Source: a virus (lineage: Duplodnaviria > Caudoviricetes). Taken from it: a DNA stretch of 64,000 bases. The DNA lies in IMG/VR virus record IMGVR_UViG_3300020336_000481, positions 83,341 through 147,340 of that record; one strand, given 5' to 3'. The first letter of the stretch is position 1, and the number at the start of each line of letters is the position of its first letter. The notes under the pieces were generated by a model. The model did not search any database. It saw nothing but the letters and a program-made list of their open reading frames with translations, and was not told the DNA's origin. Position numbers and translations under genes: made by a program. Shown here one piece after another: positions 1 to 61,737 of this stretch.

Positions 1-1665
1 GGTGTAAGTAGATTTGTAATTATTAATCCGCAAACTACAAACGTAATTACTTCAGATGACGGAGGAGCAAGTTGGATATTAAGGTCAGGTGCATTACCAA
101 GCACAGGACATGCACATATTACTTACGGCCAAGGACGTTTTGTTGCAGTAAAAGATAATGCATCAGCGGCTACAGATACATGCTGGAGTACAGATGGTGT
201 TACTTGGACTCAAGGTGCATCACTTCCAACAGGTAACTCCTATAAAGATTTAGCTTATGGTAATAACTTGTTTATTGCAATAAGTAGCACAAACAATAAA
301 GCAGCAATAAGTAGTGACGGTAAAACTTGGAGAGAAGTTAGTGTTCCAAGTATAGATGGATCGTCAACATCTAACTATACAAGTATTGCTTACGGACACG
401 GTGTATTTGTTGCGGCAGCAGATAACAACGCTACTGTACAAGATTATAACAGTGTAGTTTATACCGAAGACGGTATACACTGGTATACACAAGGAGTAAC
501 AGTAGGTGGCAATATTCAAGGATTTGGCACAATAGCATTTGGTAATCCAAATAGAGTAGGTGGATTTGTTGCTATTGACAATGCAGGTTCTACAAATATA
601 GCTACACTTGCAAAAATTGGTGCAAGAGCAAGAGGTAGAGCAAACATTGCTAGTGAAAAGATATTTGAAATTAAAATGGAAGAACCAGGTTCGGGATACA
701 CAACACCGCCAACTATGACAGTTACAGATCCAAGTAATATTTACGATATTAACTTTACTGTAAGAACAGGTAAAGGTGTAAGTTCTCAACCAAGTTTTGA
801 ACATAGAGGCGCAGGCTTCCTTACTGCTACGGCAACAGTTGATGCAGTAGAGTATAATGGTGGTGCTGACTTCTTCCAAACAGGAAACTTTATTGCAGCA
901 AGACGTTTAACTAAACGACCAGTTGCAGGGTCAAACGTAGTATTTGATAGTTTACCAAATAAAACATTTAAATTAGTTGATGTGATTACGTTCTTAGGTA
1001 CCAACGATGGATCATACACAGGATTTTTACAAATCAGTCCAAACATGACTGTTACAGATGCAGTCGTAGACGGTGATCCAATAACAATGCGTATACGTTA
1101 CTCACAAGTACGTTTAACTGGACATGATTTCTTAGATATTGGTACAGGTAACTTTACTAAATCAAACTATCCTGGTGTTCCTACAGTAGCACCAGACCAA
1201 ACTAAAGAAACACAAGAGTCAAACGGCGGAAGAGTGTTCTTTACTGCAACTGACCAAGATGGTAACTTTAGAGTTGGTAATTTGTTTAGTGTTGAACAAG
1301 CAACTGGTGTTGCGACATTGAATGCTGATGCATTTAATATTGCAGGTCTACAAGAACTTACACTAGGTGAAGTTACACTAGGTGGTAATTCAGCAAGTAT
1401 TACTGAATTTAGTACAGATCCGTTTTTTACAGCAAACTCGGATACTGTTGTACCAACACAAAGAGCTGTAAAAGCATATATTGAAGCACAAATTGGTGGA
1501 GGTGGTGCTTCACTAAATGTTAATAGTGTAACTGCTGGTGATATATTTGTTGGAAGTAATATTATTACCAACGTAACCAGCGGAGTGATAAATATAAACG
1601 CAAGAATGAACTTTATAGGCGGAGTTACAGGCATACCAATTGCTTTTAACTACTTCCTAAGGTAA
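1..1665 (+). CDS. Virion structural/tail fibre protein, 5'-truncated by window edge
   Basis: Frame open from base 1 (GVSRFVII...) into ORF 268-1665; BNR-like S-x-D-G-x-T-W repeats; G/T/S-rich; in fibre cluster. Confidence 0.7.
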   Translation, partial: GVSRFVIINPQTTNVITSDDGGASWILRSGALPSTGHAHITYGQGRFVAVKDNASAATDTCWSTDGVTWTQGASLPTGNSYKDLAYGNNLFIAISSTNNKAAISSDGKTWREVSVPSIDGSSTSNYTSIAYGHGVFVAAADNNATVQDYNSVVYTEDGIHWYTQGVTVGGNIQGFGTIAFGNPNRVGGFVAIDNAGSTNIATLAKIGARARGRANIASEKIFEIKMEEPGSGYTTPPTMTVTDPSNIYDINFTVRTGKGVSSQPSFEHRGAGFLTATATVDAVEYNGGADFFQTGNFIAARRLTKRPVAGSNVVFDSLPNKTFKLVDVITFLGTNDGSYTGFLQISPNMTVTDAVVDGDPITMRIRYSQVRLTGHDFLDIGTGNFTKSNYPGVPTVAPDQTKETQESNGGRVFFTATDQDGNFRVGNLFSVEQATGVATLNADAFNIAGLQELTLGEVTLGGNSASITEFSTDPFFTANSDTVVPTQRAVKAYIEAQIGGGGASLNVNSVTAGDIFVGSNIITNVTSGVININARMNFIGGVTGIPIAFNYFLR

Positions 1666-53881: not shown

Positions 53882-54545
53882 ATACGGTAGCACACGCTTC
53901 GATGGAAAGCCACTATGTATGTTAGATGGTGTTCCTATGATAAAACGTGTGTATGACGCTTGTACTGCGTCTAAGATACCAACATACATACTTACTGATG
54001 ATATGCGTATCTTTAATATGTTTGGTGCAGACAAGTGTTGGATAGAAGAAGAACATGTTGCACCATATGCTAATGGTACTGAACGATGCTCTGGTGCTAT
54101 TACAAAGTGGCATGAACTAAAACAATACAACCAATTTGTTAATGTACAAGGTGATATGCCAGATGTTACACTGCAAATGATTGAACGTTGTGTAGAATGG
54201 TTACAGTATTATCCTATTAGCACAGTGTACACACAAATGCCTAAAGAAATGCAGAACGATCCTAACAGTGTAAAAATGGTTAGAGCGGGCGATCAAGCAT
54301 TATGGTTTGGTAGAGGTTTGACTGGATATGGCGAATGGCATTTGGGAATATACGGTTATAAAAGAAATGCATTAGAATTATATAATAGTCTTGAAATTAC
54401 TATTGAAGAAGAAACGGAAAAATTAGAACAACTAAGATGGTTAAAAAGTGGTTGGAATTTAGGCTGTTCGAGTGTATACTTTAAAGGTACTGAGATAAAT
54501 TCACCAGAGGATGTAGATATATGGCACAACCAAAACTCCCATTAA
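53853..54545 (+). CDS. kdsB: CMP-Kdo synthetase
   Basis: IPARYGSTRFDGKPL, GTER, VNVQGD, HLGIYGY, EKLEQLRWL. Confidence 0.93.
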   Translation: MNTAILIPARYGSTRFDGKPLCMLDGVPMIKRVYDACTASKIPTYILTDDMRIFNMFGADKCWIEEEHVAPYANGTERCSGAITKWHELKQYNQFVNVQGDMPDVTLQMIERCVEWLQYYPISTVYTQMPKEMQNDPNSVKMVRAGDQALWFGRGLTGYGEWHLGIYGYKRNALELYNSLEITIEEETEKLEQLRWLKSGWNLGCSSVYFKGTEINSPEDVDIWHNQNSH

Positions 54546-54979
54546 AAGACATACTTGCAGCCATTGATATGGGTGCAAAAGATGTATGGAATGAAATCAC
54601 TGAAGAAGAACGTAAGCAGATCAGCTTTTGGTTACTAAACAGATATGTAAGTAGTGTACAAGGTAATAGAGAAAAACAAGAATTAGCAGTATTCAAAACA
54701 AACGAATACTACAATAAAAATTATATGAATGTTAGTAAACATCAAACTTTGTTATGGCAGTTACTTTGCATCTCAGGTAATACTGGTAAGATTGAATTCC
54801 ATAAATGGATTGGACACAAAAAGAAAAACGGAGATATTGCAGACAAAGGTGCAAAACTACTAACAAGTTTATTTCCTAATATGAAACAAGAAGAGGCAGA
54901 TATACTTGCTAGAATATCTACAAAAAAAGAACTCAAACAATTGGCTGAAGAACATGGAGTTGAAAATTTCAAAATCTGA
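54521..54979 (+). CDS. Hypothetical, possibly clamp-loader small subunit (gp62-like)
   Basis: Helical; WLLNRYVS and FHKWI resemble gp62-type proteins. Confidence 0.4.
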   Translation: MAQPKLPLKDILAAIDMGAKDVWNEITEEERKQISFWLLNRYVSSVQGNREKQELAVFKTNEYYNKNYMNVSKHQTLLWQLLCISGNTGKIEFHKWIGHKKKNGDIADKGAKLLTSLFPNMKQEEADILARISTKKELKQLAEEHGVENFKI

Positions 54980-55658
54980 TAAACCATATATGTGTGAATA
55001 CTGCGGAGCCTCTTTTACTAGAGAAAAAACTTTGGCAGTTCATATGTGTGAGCCAAAACGTAGAAAATTACAAAAGAATGAGAAACGTGTACAACTAGGT
55101 ATGTATGCATTCAATCAGTTCTATAAACTTAGTGCAGGTGCAAAGAAAAACAAAACATACGAAGAGTTTTGTAAGAGTCCATACTACAACGCATTTGTAA
55201 AGTTTGGAAGTTTTGTATCAAATGTAAAACCTTTATACCCAGAGAAGTATATTGATTATGTTGTTACTTCAAGAGTTAAACTTGATCATTGGTGCAGAGA
55301 CGAGATGTACGAGAAGTATGCAACGGAGTTAATTTTAAAAGAGGGTGTTGAAACGGCATTAGAGCGTAGTGTACAAACTATGTTAGAATGGGCTAGTGAT
55401 AACGAGCCAGCACCATGGAATCATTATTTTAAATATGTAAGTTTAAATAGAGCAGTATGGCATATTAAAGATGGAAAGATATCACCCTGGCTTGTACTTA
55501 ATTGTAAAAGCGGTAAAGAAATGTTAAGTAAATTTAATAACGAACAATTAGAAATGATATATCATATTGTGAATCCTGAACATTGGGCATTACGTTTTAA
55601 ACGACAACATCGTGATATAGAACTTGTAAAAGAAATTGTTAAAGAGAGTAATTTATAA
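54906..55658 (+). CDS. Zinc-finger protein (true start probably about 54955)
   Basis: KPYMCEYCGASFTREKTLAVHMC. Confidence 0.6.
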   Translation: MLEYLQKKNSNNWLKNMELKISKSDKPYMCEYCGASFTREKTLAVHMCEPKRRKLQKNEKRVQLGMYAFNQFYKLSAGAKKNKTYEEFCKSPYYNAFVKFGSFVSNVKPLYPEKYIDYVVTSRVKLDHWCRDEMYEKYATELILKEGVETALERSVQTMLEWASDNEPAPWNHYFKYVSLNRAVWHIKDGKISPWLVLNCKSGKEMLSKFNNEQLEMIYHIVNPEHWALRFKRQHRDIELVKEIVKESNL

Positions 55659-56218
55659 TGCCTGATATTGATATTGATTTTGCAGATAGAGAAGCTATAC
55701 TAAGTAAACTTACACACAGAGTTGCAAAACTTGATACAGGTAAGAAACATAATACTGGTGTATATGTAAACGAAATTCCACACAATCCTGTAGATAAACT
55801 ATCTACACTTGACTACAAGATAGCAGAAGAACGCGGATATTTTAAACTAGATTTTTTAAATGTGTCTATATACAGAGATGTAAAAGATGAGGCACATCTA
55901 CAAACTCTATTAGAAAGGAAACCAATATGGCAACTACTGGAGCACAAAGACTTCGTCGACAAAGTATTTCATCTATCAGGGCACGACACACTCTTAAAAC
56001 AATTGAAGCCTACTTCGGTCGAGCAATTGGCTGCAACATTAGCAGTGATACGTCCGGCCAAGAGATATCTAGCAAACAAAGGTTGGAGCGAGATATTAAA
56101 TTGGGTATGGGTAAAACCAACAAACGGTGAATACTACTTTAAGAAAGCACACGCTGTATCATATGCCATGGCGTGTGTAGTACATATGAACTTATTGTGT
56201 GAACAATTACAAGAATAA
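55658..56218 (+). CDS. Miniature DnaE (C-family polymerase) catalytic-core protein
   Basis: PDIDIDF, HNTGV, KLDFL, IRP, FKKAHAVSY in DnaE order. Confidence 0.75.
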   Translation: MPDIDIDFADREAILSKLTHRVAKLDTGKKHNTGVYVNEIPHNPVDKLSTLDYKIAEERGYFKLDFLNVSIYRDVKDEAHLQTLLERKPIWQLLEHKDFVDKVFHLSGHDTLLKQLKPTSVEQLAATLAVIRPAKRYLANKGWSEILNWVWVKPTNGEYYFKKAHAVSYAMACVVHMNLLCEQLQE

Positions 56219-56219
56219 T

Positions 56220-56594
56220 TTATTTCTTTTTTTCTCGGCGGACTAGCTGAATACTTTTTCTTTTTACTCTTTTAACCGACAAATTACTTAGACTTACAGT
56301 TGGACCAATACTTACTTTTACGTCTTTACTGTTCATAGTCATTTGACTATACTTAAAAATATTCATCTCTGAAGGTAAAAAGATATTAATGGGTATCATT
56401 CTATTTGACTCCCACCACCATACTGCACCTAGCTCTAGAAAGGCCTGTTGTTCTTTTTCGGAATGTAATCGTGTGTAAACGTACATTGAAGTTACGTTTT
56501 GGTCTTGATTAGAGATTATACCGACGTATTCGTTGCCGCCGTAGCTTACAACACTTAAAAATGGAAAGTTTGTTTCGATGTCTTTTGTTAGCAT
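56220..56594 (-). CDS. Hypothetical protein
   Basis: WWWESNRMIPINIF; basic C-terminus; start moved to MLTKD. Confidence 0.55.
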   Translation of the reverse strand: MLTKDIETNFPFLSVVSYGGNEYVGIISNQDQNVTSMYVYTRLHSEKEQQAFLELGAVWWWESNRMIPINIFLPSEMNIFKYSQMTMNSKDVKVSIGPTVSLSNLSVKRVKRKSIQLVRREKKK

Positions 56595-56615
56595 GTGTTC
56601 CCGATAAATATACTT

Positions 56616-57401
56616 ATGCAATACGTACCTAGATATTTATTAAATAATAGAACTTCCATTATCGCAAATGATAGCGGATTTATAACGGAGTATAGACCAG
56701 TGTATCAAAATCAATTACAAATATATAAAGGCATAGACAATGTCTTACAATTTAGATTATTAAATGCAGATCAGAAACCAATAGACACCTCAGACTACAC
56801 ACCAAAGTTTCAAGCATTTGATGAAAACAAAAAATTAATTATATCACATGACGGAGTGAACTTAGACGACGGTAGTAGTCAAAGCAGAGGATTGTTTACT
56901 GTAACTGTTACAGAAAGTGATTTGTTAAATGTTTTAGATCAATACCTAAGTTATAGTATACACTTAGTTGATGCTAATGGTAAGAAAAAAGTTTCATATA
57001 CTGATACACACTTTAATAATAGTGGAACAATAAACATTAGTAGTAGTGCATTTCCTGGTCCAAATCCTACTTACAGTGTTACATCGTTTACACAAGTTAC
57101 TGAAAACACACCGTATTGGGTTACTGAAAGTTTGGACGCAGAGCCAGGAATAAATGGTAACGAAGCACTACACACAATAACAGTATACACTGATAACTAT
57201 ATTGGTGATGTAATTGTACAAGGTACTTTGGATAATCAAATAGCAGATAATACTAATTGGGCTGATATTACATCTTTATCGTTTACAGGATCAGAAACTG
57301 AACCAGTACCTGCTAACTTTAACGGAGTATTTACAAACTTACGATTTAAAGCCTCAGTAGATCCTGCATCAAAAATAAGTAAAATACTTGTTCGAAACTG
57401 A
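56616..57401 (+). CDS. Probable virion structural protein
   Basis: Beta-rich; TAAATA-N5-ATG late promoter. Confidence 0.5.
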   Translation: MQYVPRYLLNNRTSIIANDSGFITEYRPVYQNQLQIYKGIDNVLQFRLLNADQKPIDTSDYTPKFQAFDENKKLIISHDGVNLDDGSSQSRGLFTVTVTESDLLNVLDQYLSYSIHLVDANGKKKVSYTDTHFNNSGTINISSSAFPGPNPTYSVTSFTQVTENTPYWVTESLDAEPGINGNEALHTITVYTDNYIGDVIVQGTLDNQIADNTNWADITSLSFTGSETEPVPANFNGVFTNLRFKASVDPASKISKILVRN

Positions 57402-57436: not shown

Positions 57437-58441
57437 ATGAGTGTAGTCAATGATATAGTTCTGACATATTTGCCGCCTAAGCGTAAGACAACGCCTAGTG
57501 GGTGGACTTCATTCAATGCACCCTGTTGCCATCATAACGGCGAATCCGCTGATACTAGACAACGTGGAGGACTTATAAGCAATCCCGATGGCGGTCTAAG
57601 TTTCCATTGTTTTAATTGCGGGTTTAAATGCAGCTGGCAACCGGGTCGCAACCTAAGTCATAAAATGCGTAAGTTCTTACAATGGAATAGTGCTCCTGAC
57701 GATGTCATCAACAAACTTGCACTACAAGTTATGCAAGAAAATGAAGGCATAGCAATTAAAAATAAGATTGCAGAGTTACCAACATTTCATACAACACCAA
57801 TGCCTCAAAGTGCTAAGCCTATACCAGAATGGGCAGACTACTGTGCTTTAGAACCAGGTGGAGTTGACAAGAACTTATTAGCAGTAATTGACTATATGAA
57901 AGAACGTAGTTTGTATATAGACGACTTTACGTTTTACTGGACACCTGAACTAGGTTACAGAGATAGACTAATTATTCCGTTTATGTTTGAAGGTAGGATA
58001 GTAGGTTGGACTGCTAGGAAAATTAAAAATGGCAATCCAAAGTACCTTAGTGAACAACAGCCCGGTTATGTGTTTAACTTAGACGAACAGCGACAACAAA
58101 AGATATTTGTTATTGTATGCGAAGGTCCAATTGATGCTATACATGTAGAAGGTGTAGCGTTACTTGGTAGCGAACTAAAAGATCAACAAGCAATGCTAAT
58201 AAACAGACTAGGCAAAGATGTTATTGTTGTTCCTGATAGAGATGATGCAGGTAGTAAACTTGTAGAAGAAGCAATACAACAAGGATGGCAAGTTAGTATG
58301 CCAAATTGGGATCAAGATGTCAACGACATAGGTGATGCTGTTAATAAGTATGGTAAACTATTTACTTTATACAACATTGTAGGTTGTGCAGAAAATAGTG
58401 CATTAAAAATAAGACTGAGAGCAAAAAGATGGTTTGGTTAA
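57437..58441 (+). CDS. DNA primase (Zn ribbon + TOPRIM)
   Basis: HCFNC, RLIIP, PKYL, VCEGPIDA, PDRDDAG. Confidence 0.85.
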   Translation: MSVVNDIVLTYLPPKRKTTPSGWTSFNAPCCHHNGESADTRQRGGLISNPDGGLSFHCFNCGFKCSWQPGRNLSHKMRKFLQWNSAPDDVINKLALQVMQENEGIAIKNKIAELPTFHTTPMPQSAKPIPEWADYCALEPGGVDKNLLAVIDYMKERSLYIDDFTFYWTPELGYRDRLIIPFMFEGRIVGWTARKIKNGNPKYLSEQQPGYVFNLDEQRQQKIFVIVCEGPIDAIHVEGVALLGSELKDQQAMLINRLGKDVIVVPDRDDAGSKLVEEAIQQGWQVSMPNWDQDVNDIGDAVNKYGKLFTLYNIVGCAENSALKIRLRAKRWFG

Positions 58442-58552: not shown

Positions 58553-58810
58553 ATGGTAGAAAGGATATTAACAATGAAGAACGAATTTCAAGTAGGAATA
58601 TTTGAAGTACTCAAAAAATTACTAAAAGGCAATAGTGCTTTCTTAGCAGTTATATATACGCTAGGACATATTATTATTGCTCTTAATGTAGTATATTGGA
58701 TAACTGGAGCCAGCCTGTTTGAAGCAGGATTAGTTGCTCTTCTTGAACCTGCTATTAATGGAGTTTGGTTTTATATTTTACATAGTTTGTGGAGAAAGTC
58801 TAACGCATGA
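58553..58810 (+). CDS. Small membrane protein (DUF2061-like)
   Basis: Two hydrophobic segments; EP..N..FY..H..W. Confidence 0.55.
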   Translation: MVERILTMKNEFQVGIFEVLKKLLKGNSAFLAVIYTLGHIIIALNVVYWITGASLFEAGLVALLEPAINGVWFYILHSLWRKSNA

Positions 58811-60297
58811 AGACTGTTTGGGGTATAAGTGCAAATAGCCACGATGCCGGCTTAGCAGTTTTAAAGCACGGATTTAAAGGACTAACAGATAAACCTAATC
58901 TTACTTTATTGTTTGCAAGTCACAGTGAAAGATTTTCTAAGATAAAGAACGACCCACATCTAAGTCAAGATATGGTAGACTATGCACTAGAAAAATTTGG
59001 ATACCCTAGAGAAATTGTTTGGTATGAAAAACCTTTTAAGAAAACACTACGTCAATACTTTGCAGGTCAAGGTTGGAATAGTAACGAAAACAATATTAAA
59101 GAATACTTAAATAGGTATGGTATTGATGCTCCAATATCTTATGTAGACCATCATAGGTCTCATGCCGCTGGCGGGTTTTATACAAGTCCATACAGAGATG
59201 CTACTGTAGTAGTTATTGATGCTATTGGTGAGTTTGCCACAACTACAATTTGGCAAGCCGAAGGTACTAGTTTAACAAAACGTTTTACAAAAAGATTCCC
59301 TCATAGCCTAGGTTTGTTTTACAGTGCTATGACTCAAAGGGTAGGACTTACACCAAACGAAGACGAATATATTCTTATGGGTATGGCCGCATATGGTAAC
59401 CCTAATAGATTATATTATGAGATGCACAACGATTTTTTTAAAGACAAGTCTAAAGTATTTGCACTAACACAAAATTTACACAGAGGGTGCAAGGGGTGGA
59501 GACCGGACCTCACAACAGAACAAGACATGTATGACATTGCAGCCGCGACCCAGAAGATATACGAAATGTATTTTGCTGAAATATTAATCAAGGCCAAGTA
59601 TACGTTACCTAGTAACAATCTTGTGATCAGTGGTGGGTGTGCATTAAATTGTAGTGCCAACGCCAAGGCTCTGTATCATTATGACAATATATGGATTATG
59701 CCCAACCCAGGTGATGCTGGTTCGGCACTAGGGTCAGTACTTGCAAAACATAATATGCATATAAAATGGAATGGGCCATACTTAGGGTATAACATTCCAG
59801 GACCATACCCTGTGAAAGAAATTATTGATGAACTGTTAAAAACGGGCATATGTGGAGTAGCAAATGGACCAGCTGAGTATGGGCCTAGAGCATTAGGCAA
59901 TAGAAGTTTATTGGCTGATCCAAGACGTGCTGATATCAAAGACAAGGTAAATGAAATCAAACGTAGACAGCGTTTTAGACCTTTTGCACCAGCAGTGCTA
60001 TCAGAGTATACCCAGGACCTGTTTAGTGCTTATACGGGCCCTTATATGCAGTTTACGGCACCATGTACACAAGCAGATAAGTATCCTGCTATTGTGCATG
60101 TAGATGGTACTAGTAGGGTTCAAACTGTGGGTGTAAATGATAATCCAGGATTTCGATTGTTGCTAGAAGAATGGCATAAACAAACAGGGTGTCCAATGTT
60201 GTTAAATACTTCGCTCAATATCAAAGGACAACCCATAGTAAATAACTTGACAGACGCTGAAAAATTTGCTACAATGTATAATGTAAAGGTATATTAA
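58807..60297 (+). CDS. Carbamoyltransferase (NodU/CmcH family)
   Basis: SHD, HHRSHAA, DAIGE, MGMAAYG, GGCALN, EYGPRALGNRS, FRPFAP, LNTSLN. Confidence 0.92.
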   Translation: MKTVWGISANSHDAGLAVLKHGFKGLTDKPNLTLLFASHSERFSKIKNDPHLSQDMVDYALEKFGYPREIVWYEKPFKKTLRQYFAGQGWNSNENNIKEYLNRYGIDAPISYVDHHRSHAAGGFYTSPYRDATVVVIDAIGEFATTTIWQAEGTSLTKRFTKRFPHSLGLFYSAMTQRVGLTPNEDEYILMGMAAYGNPNRLYYEMHNDFFKDKSKVFALTQNLHRGCKGWRPDLTTEQDMYDIAAATQKIYEMYFAEILIKAKYTLPSNNLVISGGCALNCSANAKALYHYDNIWIMPNPGDAGSALGSVLAKHNMHIKWNGPYLGYNIPGPYPVKEIIDELLKTGICGVANGPAEYGPRALGNRSLLADPRRADIKDKVNEIKRRQRFRPFAPAVLSEYTQDLFSAYTGPYMQFTAPCTQADKYPAIVHVDGTSRVQTVGVNDNPGFRLLLEEWHKQTGCPMLLNTSLNIKGQPIVNNLTDAEKFATMYNVKVY

Positions 60298-60300
60298 ATA

Positions 60301-61737
60301 ATGACAACAAGACAGAACACAGACTACGGATATGATATACAGAAGGTATATCTTGAAATGATGATGACAGATGCTGAGAGCTTTGTTAGATGTCAGGCTG
60401 TGTTTGATCCAGAAGCTTTTGATAGACGTTTGCATTCAACTGCAAAGTTCTTAAATGATTATGTAGTTGAACACAATGCATTGCCTACGTTTGATATAAT
60501 AAATGCGGCATGTCCTAGTGTTAAATTAGAGCATCCAGGTGACCTAGCAGAGAATCATTATGATTGGCTACTGCAAGACTTTGAAACATTTTCAAAACAC
60601 AAAGCATTAGAAAAAGCAATTCTCACAAGTGCTGACTTACTTGAAAAAGGCGAGTATGGTGCATGTGAAGATCTAGTCAAGAAAGCAGTACAGATTGGTC
60701 TACAAAAAGACTTGGGTACAGATTACTTTGCTGATCCAAGACAGCGACTAGAAAGCATCAAAGACAAGAACGGACAGATATCTACAGGGTGGCCGGTGTT
60801 GGATAGAAAATTATTTGGTGGGTTCAACAGAGGCGAGCTTAATATCTTTGCAGGTGGCTCAGGCAGTGGTAAGAGTTTGTTCTTGGCCAACTTGGGTGTT
60901 AACTTTGCACTAACAGGGTTGAACGTTGTGTACTTGACGTTTGAACTTTCAGAAGCACTTGTTAGTATGCGTGTTGACTCAATGACTACAGATATTCCAA
61001 GCAGAGACATTTTTAAAAGCATCGATGATGTTGAAATGAAAGTTAAAATGATTGGCAAGAAGAGTGGTGCATTCCAAGTCAAGTATATGCCCACAGGCAA
61101 GAACGCAAATGACATTAGAAGTTATTTGAAAGAGTATGAAATCAAAACAGGCAAGAAGATAGATGTGTTACTGGTAGACTATCTAGATCTAATGCATCCA
61201 ATTGCAACTAAGATATCAGCTGAGAACTTGTTTGTCAAAGACAAGTATGTGTCAGAAGAACTGCGTAACCTAGCCATGGAGCTCAACACAATCTTTGTAA
61301 CAGCGGCACAGTTGAATAGAAGCTCAGTAGAAGAAATTGAATTTGATCACTCGCACATATCGGGTGGTATAAGTAAGATCAATACAGCAGACAACTTGAT
61401 TGGTATCTTTACTAGTAGAGCTATGCGTGAGCGTGGTAGATATCAAATACAGTTGATGAAGACTAGAAGTAGTTCAGGTGTAGGACAAAAGATTGATCTA
61501 GAGTTTGATGTAGACAGCCTACGTATTAGAGATCTAGCTGAAGATGATGACGACACCAACAGTTATGGAACACGTACAAACAAAGTGTTTGATCAAATCA
61601 AACGTGGCAGCAGCACACCAGACCCGCAAGACAGTGTACATGATGATCCCAGCACAGGTGATACTGTGGGCAAGATTAGAGCAGAAACTGATTCAACCAA
61701 GTTGAAAAACTTTATCAATAATCTAGGAAGTGACTAA
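60301..61737 (+). CDS. Replicative DnaB-like helicase (gp41-like)
   Basis: GGSGSGKS, FEL, VDYLDLM, AQLNR, KTR. Confidence 0.9.
   Translation: MTTRQNTDYGYDIQKVYLEMMMTDAESFVRCQAVFDPEAFDRRLHSTAKFLNDYVVEHNALPTFDIINAACPSVKLEHPGDLAENHYDWLLQDFETFSKHKALEKAILTSADLLEKGEYGACEDLVKKAVQIGLQKDLGTDYFADPRQRLESIKDKNGQISTGWPVLDRKLFGGFNRGELNIFAGGSGSGKSLFLANLGVNFALTGLNVVYLTFELSEALVSMRVDSMTTDIPSRDIFKSIDDVEMKVKMIGKKSGAFQVKYMPTGKNANDIRSYLKEYEIKTGKKIDVLLVDYLDLMHPIATKISAENLFVKDKYVSEELRNLAMELNTIFVTAAQLNRSSVEEIEFDHSHISGGISKINTADNLIGIFTSRAMRERGRYQIQLMKTRSSSGVGQKIDLEFDVDSLRIRDLAEDDDDTNSYGTRTNKVFDQIKRGSSTPDPQDSVHDDPSTGDTVGKIRAETDSTKLKNFINNLGSD

Follow-up and report, generated by a model that had tools for sequence, protein, structure and literature searches.

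A probable C-terminal subunit of a split, minimal DNA polymerase III alpha encoded by an uncultured phage

The closest described relatives of the system treated here are the split minimal alpha subunits of DNA polymerase III (Pol III) that were predicted computationally in group 2.2 jumbo phages, alongside a family B replicase, by Iyer et al. 2021 (Viruses 13:63; PMC7824862), who suggest that the mini-Pol III cooperates with this family B polymerase (PolB), either in repair or by synthesizing one of the strands. Such an enzyme is composed of a C-terminal unit (C-unit; PHROG 11778) and an N-terminal unit (N-unit; PHROG 11127), with gp16 and gp56 of phage 121Q as well as Paride_0017 and Paride_0087 of phage Paride as examples. 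Here, we analyzed a stretch of 64,000 nucleotides ("the window") covering positions 83,341 to 147,340 of the IMG/VR record IMGVR_UViG_3300020336_000481, a 147-kb sequence of an uncultured phage that is judged to be 42% complete. An open reading frame (ORF) at 55658..56218 on the plus strand of this window encodes a protein of 186 amino acids (aa) with the second half of a palm and reduced fingers that is very probably the C-terminal subunit of a two-polypeptide minimal Pol III alpha-type DNA polymerase of group 2.2 T4-related jumbo phages. The concept as such is already published, and this copy is a new environmental member of the family.

The C-unit ORF begins with MPDIDIDF, and its start codon and the TAA of the preceding ORF have a single base in common (TAATG at 55655-55660). 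Among PDB sequences searched with phmmer, the C-unit matches DnaE alone, with three colinear segments shared with Mycobacterium tuberculosis DnaE1 (C-unit 1-12 with 413-424, 51-136 with 567-665, and 153-172 with 770-788) and the first eight residues identical between the two proteins. It further matches PHROG 11778, a "DNA polymerase" family of ca. 197 aa, over its full length (E 3.1e-59; C-unit 3-183 aligned to 8-194 of the 197 profile positions), and its only Pfam match is the finger domain PF17657 at 14.7 bits, which is under the 22-bit cut-off of that family. This likeness to DnaE is far above chance.

To number the residues, we aligned a profile of 74 homologues with 30% to 91% identity to E. 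coli DnaE (from NC_000913.3). The aspartates D3, D5, and D7 of the DxDxD strand with its metal ligands (codons at 55664..55678, plus strand like all other codons given here) are the equivalents of D401, D403, and D405 in E. coli, and K63-L64-D65 (55844..55852) corresponds to K553-F554-D555, with D65 as the third catalytic aspartate; the established catalytic residues of the E. coli enzyme are D401, D403, and D555. In the fingers, R132-P133 (56051..56056) is equivalent to R639-P640, and the motif F161-K-K-A-H165-A-V-S-Y169 (56138..56164), which is recovered by the phmmer and the profile alignments, carries the equivalents of F756, H760, and Y764. D3, D5, D7, K63, D65, R132, and P133 are invariant in all 74 homologues, and H31, G34, K135, K162, and H165 are conserved in at least 90% of them. 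H31 and G34 belong to the motif HNTGV, a putative counterpart of E. coli HAGG. An earlier note on this DNA, made from the sequence alone, had described the ORF as a miniature DnaE with colinear motifs and all three catalytic aspartates retained, and both observations stand.

What has been lost is seen in the profile and the structural alignments, which agree with the earlier note on internal deletions and on the loss of PHP, most of thumb and fingers, clamp-binding, and OB domains. E. coli residues 407-538, including the thumb, are reduced to ca. 45 aa, and about 97 residues of the fingers (642-738) are reduced to ca. 12 aa. The C-terminus of the C-unit corresponds to about residue 781 of the 1160 of E. 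coli DnaE, so that the clamp-binding, HhH, OB, and tau-binding regions are absent, and a Pfam scan of the ORF gave no match to a PHP domain. The first residue is the equivalent of M399, right at the DxD strand. Nothing in the protein corresponds to E. coli 271-392, where DnaE has the first strand of its palm, a helix, and the triphosphate loop GRGS (with R362-G363-S364).

The C-unit alone was modeled by AlphaFold2 with a predicted local distance difference test score (pLDDT) of 96.1, and the first 14 matches of this model in a Foldseek search of the PDB are all Pol III alpha. In VIA-align, the top 14 matches are likewise all DnaE or PolC (Z 9.9-6.5), compared to a Z of 3.3 for the best unrelated chain. 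The alignment to Taq Pol III alpha (3e0d; Z 9.9) includes 184 of the 186 residues with a root-mean-square deviation of 3.7, and the structural alignment covers residues 400..781 of the E. coli and 461..838 of the Taq enzyme. The view of the earlier note that the gene is intact is borne out, and purifying selection on it is strong: over 795 pairs drawn from 77 environmental copies, the ratio of nonsynonymous to synonymous substitution rates (dN/dS) is 0.14 at the median and never exceeds 0.30. The C-unit is an intact, selected, and drastically reduced derivative of a C-family polymerase and not debris. Trans-splicing by an intein, already dismissed in the earlier note, was rejected as well because the alignment to DnaE fills 184 of 186 residues of the C-unit and because the N-unit of relatives ends in a DnaE helix.

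The family of the C-unit is abundant. By tblastn, we found it in the genomes of 96 isolate phages, which are jumbo phages without exception, with identities of 53% for PA5oct-like Pseudomonas phages, 49% for Atu_ph07 and Phosso, and ca. 37% for the 121Q/RaK2/GAP32 group; SCTP-2 was also matched, and no isolate phage of the collection exceeds 53% identity. Relatives are encoded in at least 546 IMG/VR stretches. In a search of clusters at 90% identity, all 8000 of 8000 scored candidates match the C-unit, some of them in Tara Oceans records, and 408 clusters at 50% identity match it with members that are nearly all 185 to 200 aa long. The boundaries of the protein are the same across Pseudomonas, E. 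coli, and Agrobacterium phages and metagenomic contigs. Close homologues of the lineage studied here include Tara Oceans sequences, and a megablast search with 10 kb retrieved no near-identical phage genome.

The segment that the C-unit lacks is encoded by a distant gene in its relatives. When we searched the complete genomes of Paride and 121Q with phrog_405, a profile of full-length phage DnaE, a second small ORF (169 and 180 aa, respectively) matched profile positions 360-429, directly before those matched by the C-unit. Both ORFs end in ...GVGRGSS...EFLK and belong to phrog_11127. The large metagenomic relatives G002 and G003 carry N-units of 185 aa, and the terminal motif across relatives reads ...GVGRGSS...EFL(K/R). 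Residues 72-184 of the N-unit align to E. coli DnaE 271-392, a segment that opens the palm and stops at the split and in which R-G-S falls on R362-G363-S364, and the N-unit clears the Pfam cut-off of PF07733 (38.1 versus 23.9 bits). A truncated N-unit of 172 aa had already been noted in phage CBB by Buttimer et al. 2017 (PMC5259590). We found a separate N-unit in every relative with enough sequence, at a distance to the C-unit gene of ca. 31 kb in 121Q, 44 kb in Paride and PA5oct, 116 kb in SCTP-2, 122 kb in G002, 182 kb in Atu_ph07, and 224 kb in Phosso. The numbers of isolates with C-unit and N-unit are equal by genus (Escherichia 34/34, Pseudomonas 11/11, Erwinia 8/8, Xanthomonas 4/4, and Yersinia 4/4), and in isolates the N-unit gene adjoins genes for a conserved small protein, a GroES-like protein, and a gp44-type clamp loader. 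For the window and the whole 147-kb record, PF07733 (with zero matches in the record), PF17657, and PHROG 405 gave the C-unit alone as a piece of DnaE. The claim of the earlier note that there are no other such pieces is therefore correct locally but not for relatives, where the N-unit gene lies 30 to 224 kb away.

The two halves also occur in one chain. An exhaustive search of representatives at the 50% identity level turned up P0202, a 375-aa protein encoded at L094:1066-2193 on an ENA contig of 2.4 kb, in which N- and C-unit are joined by a short linker and the match to PF07733 crosses the junction; a word search for longer or fused homologues had returned none. This fused mini-Pol III could be an ancestral unsplit form or the product of a secondary fusion.

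Residues 1-71 of the N-unit (L093:1486-1698) occupy the place of the PHP domain of DnaE and are unrelated to it. They are highly conserved with many invariant positions among 46 close homologues of at least 71% identity, have no match among PDB sequences, and would contact the C-unit in the model of the complex described below. Directly 3' of the N-unit gene, metagenomic relatives, Paride, and 121Q encode a protein of 113 to 127 aa with the motif N-A-(R/K)-G-D-x-(L/I)-G-(P/S)-G-G (L093:2071-2454, L092:2068-2451, L007:1738-2079, and L008:1801-2145). This protein is without a Pfam match and may be an additional partner, either for the polymerase or for the clamp loader encoded nearby.

The halves are predicted to bind each other. 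We modeled the N-unit of G002 with the C-unit of the window, each with its own alignment, in three runs and alongside three controls. The interface score ipSAE was 0.92 in all three runs, compared to 0.00 for the best of the controls; 58 of 80 solved complexes and 2 of 110 mismatched pairs attain the mark applied to this score. The runs share at least 98% of their contacts, with a pLDDT of 92 for the partner. In the model, N-unit residues 148-159 (the strand and the GRGS loop) pack on C-unit residues 2-9, which would rebuild the palm sheet, and the strand with D3, D5, and D7 touches N-unit strand 148-152. Passing the mark nevertheless does not show binding and may reflect likeness to DnaE structures because this fold, of which the units are two pieces, has been solved many times as one chain.

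Based on these results, we infer a heterodimer with DNA polymerase activity. The C-unit would contribute the metal-binding residues D3, D5, and D65 together with K63 and cut-down fingers (R132, K162/K163, and H165), and the N-unit of ca. 185 aa would add the triphosphate-binding GRGS loop along with the first strand and the helix of the palm. Both chains would associate by strand pairing beside the DxD strand to form one Pol-beta-like palm of ca. 370 aa, non-covalently since neither piece has room for intein halves. Because this assembly would be without PHP, thumb, clamp-binding region, and OB domain, and because the main replicase of the phage would be a family B polymerase, an accessory, low-processivity, template-directed role is most likely. 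The mini-enzyme may work in primer extension, gap filling, or repair as part of the replication and recombination module. PolB was not found in the 147-kb record; G002 and G003 each encode a family B polymerase of 892 to 899 aa, and PolB is present in the PA5oct-like phage MIJ3 (PMC6892783). A DnaQ-type exonuclease was likewise not found in the record. Since a DnaQ-like gene is carried in this module by 121Q and by CBB (PMC5259590), a trans-acting proofreader encoded elsewhere is possible in this lineage.

Several points weigh against the proposed two-subunit polymerase. Our literature searches yielded no biochemical data for any member of the family, and templated synthesis is not assured given that the thumb is absent and that so little of the fingers is left. 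The N-unit used for the complex model is non-cognate, and the fused form is seen on a single 2.4-kb contig. Moreover, searches of the 147-kb record with the N-unit protein of Paride and the PHROG 11127 profile did not find an N-unit, so that the partnership rests on relatives with C-units of 71% to 72% identity and on isolates. This result does not show absence because the record is a 42%-complete fragment; the C-unit lies 8 kb from its end, and by analogy with G002 the partner gene would be located beyond it.

The C-unit gene is embedded among replication genes. Immediately upstream, 54954..55658 (plus strand) encodes a protein of 234 aa (PHROG 11058; E 3e-58) that is predicted to be entirely helical and carries a C2H2-like zinc finger at its N-terminus. 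Its C-x2-C...H-x-C pattern scores under the Pfam cut-off for zf-C2H2 (E 2.6e-4), and a comparison of 47 homologues makes the ATG at 54954 a likelier start than the TTG at 54906. The gene before it (54521..54979, plus strand) encodes a conserved protein of 152 aa (PHROG 11758; E 9e-19), which a weak lead connects to the T4 clamp-loader subunit gp62 (a language-model feature match of 0.93 to a cluster with PF16790 in 13% of its members). Downstream, a gene of PHROG 11637 (ca. 120-133 aa; E 2e-34) at 56220..56621 on the minus strand is found in 79 of 82 loci and annotated in Paride and 121Q. It is convergent with the C-unit gene, the stop codons lie two bases apart, and this inversion is kept from metagenomic contigs to Paride and 121Q. 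A DnaG/T4 gp61-type primase (57437..58441, plus strand; Toprim_2 E 6e-7, PHROG 47 E 2e-36) and a DnaB/gp41-type replicative helicase (60301..61737, plus strand; DnaB_C E 2.6e-19) follow, and the window also encodes gp32 and a RecA/UvsX homologue around the C-unit. A NodU/CmcH-type carbamoyltransferase (58807-60297, plus strand; Carbam_trans_N and Carbam_trans_C, E 1e-50) interrupts the order of primase and helicase, which directly follow each other in Paride and 121Q, and a Kdo-synthesis cluster is also interleaved with the replication genes.

Paride and essentially all of the 80 IMG/VR loci share the order of 152-aa protein, zinc-finger protein, C-unit, opposite-strand gene, virion protein, and primase, and 121Q keeps it minus the homologues of the 152-aa and the virion protein. 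In many relatives, inserts of 0.2 to 3.8 kb separate the zinc-finger gene from the C-unit gene and encode, among others, serine hydroxymethyltransferase, peptide deformylase, and an APS-kinase-like P-loop protein. This junction is a hotspot of auxiliary metabolic genes in relatives (L013:6831-10019 and L066:8432-10008, corresponding to about position 55658 of the window). The TAATG coupling emphasized in the earlier note is thus present in the window but not conserved, and the genes that it placed at 54521 and 54906 are conserved neighbors with a variable spacing to the C-unit.

These neighbors may be part of the same replisome as the polymerase, and the earlier note had gone further by proposing that the C-unit is one subunit of a multi-gene enzyme with the two upstream proteins. 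A multi-gene enzyme is indeed suggested by the N-unit of relatives; we found no evidence in sequence or fold that the two upstream genes are the missing pieces of the polymerase. That the zinc-finger and 152-aa proteins are obligate subunits replacing thumb, DNA-binding, or clamp-binding functions, besides or instead of the N-unit, appears unlikely to us. Such a role would agree with their near-universal synteny with the C-unit (82 of 82 loci for the zinc-finger gene and 81 of 82 for the 152-aa gene), with the presence of zinc-finger homologues in 93 isolate jumbo phages of the same genera as the 96 with a C-unit, with the TAATG overlap in the window, and with the lead to gp62. However, all carriers are kin, so that shared distribution and synteny weigh little, and the insertions break the coupling in many relatives. 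Furthermore, the zinc-finger protein has neither DnaE-like sequence nor a recognizable fold: its AlphaFold2 model is all-helical (pLDDT 89) with E >1 in Foldseek against the PDB and a best Z of 4.9, from a partial helical match, in a wide VIA-align comparison, and no T4 gp59-like loader is among its fold matches. Also unlikely is the more elaborate scenario in which N- and C-unit are a dedicated replisome part of PolB-using jumbo phages that performs primer extension or a hand-off with the neighboring primase, comparable to DnaE and PolC in Bacillus, with the zinc-finger and 152-aa proteins supplying DNA grip and a clamp link in an enzyme of three or four subunits.

Alternatively, the heterodimer of N- and C-unit might not be a templated polymerase at all but a template-independent nucleotidyltransferase or a synthase for nucleotide signals or modifications, which we consider rather improbable. 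The absence of the thumb and of most duplex-binding surfaces would fit such an activity, and enzymes of the Pol-beta fold include many non-polymerase transferases. Yet the C-unit has kept R132-P133 and F161...H165...Y169 (at least 90% conserved), in regions that in DnaE are near the nascent base pair and the incoming deoxynucleoside triphosphate and where H760 of the E. coli enzyme presumably acts in sugar discrimination. In addition, both genes are found in replication modules, the C-unit with primase and helicase and the N-unit with the clamp loader.

It is very improbable that the C-unit alone is a complete mini-nucleotidyltransferase for priming, tailing, or signal synthesis. The protein does fold confidently by itself, all three acidic residues are kept, and the 147-kb record is without a partner gene, but the C-unit is missing the first strand, the helix, and the G-S loop that a Pol-beta-like fold requires. 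A gene for exactly this segment co-occurs in relatives, one fused form exists, and the incompleteness of the record has to be seen against the 122 kb that separate the partner genes in G002. The purposely minimised C-family enzyme of the earlier note is therefore accurate as a reduced and selected derivative, though not as a self-sufficient one, since the first half of the palm is encoded by a separate gene. Finally, a functionless, decaying remnant of a full-length phage dnaE, as the large internal deletions, the truncation, and the PF17657 score below the cut-off might suggest, is hardly credible for a family with thousands of matching candidates of nearly uniform length (ca. 185-200 aa), invariant catalytic residues, a dN/dS of ca. 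0.14, and the same boundaries from cultured phages to metagenomic contigs.

Should the heterodimer be active, no other C-family polymerase would come close to its small size of ca. 370 aa. It would then show in nature how little the catalytic core of the bacterial replicase fold requires, and its active site would be among the few that are put together from two gene products. Its position beside a family B replicase bears on the division of labor between the polymerases of large phages, and the mini-enzyme is also relevant to the view of Iyer et al. 2021, who see a resemblance between such forms and ancestral polymerases.

Compared to the system described by these authors, the C-unit of the window belongs to the same family and shares its boundaries, is split at the same place directly ahead of the DxD strand, and lies in the same context of a replication module, with a coexisting PolB seen in relatives of the window phage. 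It differs from their examples in that it comes from an uncultured lineage, that its N-unit is off the fragment, and that its module is interspersed with a Kdo cluster and a carbamoyltransferase. DnaE of E. coli (2hnh), T. aquaticus (3e0d), and M. tuberculosis (5lew) as well as PolC can be superposed on the C-unit in the second palm half and the fingers core, and the acidic triad, the K553 equivalent, the R-P motif, and the F-x-K-S-H motif of DnaE are kept. Unlike DnaE with its 1160 aa, the C-unit has ca. 186 aa (ca. 370 aa with its partner), and the catalytic domain is split over two genes. In cyanobacteria such as Synechocystis, DnaE is encoded as DnaE-n and DnaE-c and split by a natural split intein. 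The phage enzyme would resemble this arrangement as a C-family polymerase from two distant genes, but its split is without an intein and lies within the palm at about E. coli residues 393-398. B. subtilis DnaE, which is full length, extends RNA primers for PolC, and the 174-aa Pol X of African swine fever virus is a family X repair polymerase of minimal palm-plus-one-subdomain architecture. With these enzymes the mini-Pol III may share a functional analogy only, as a second, poorly processive polymerase of the Pol-beta fold that works beside a main replicase like B. subtilis DnaE or in repair like Pol X.

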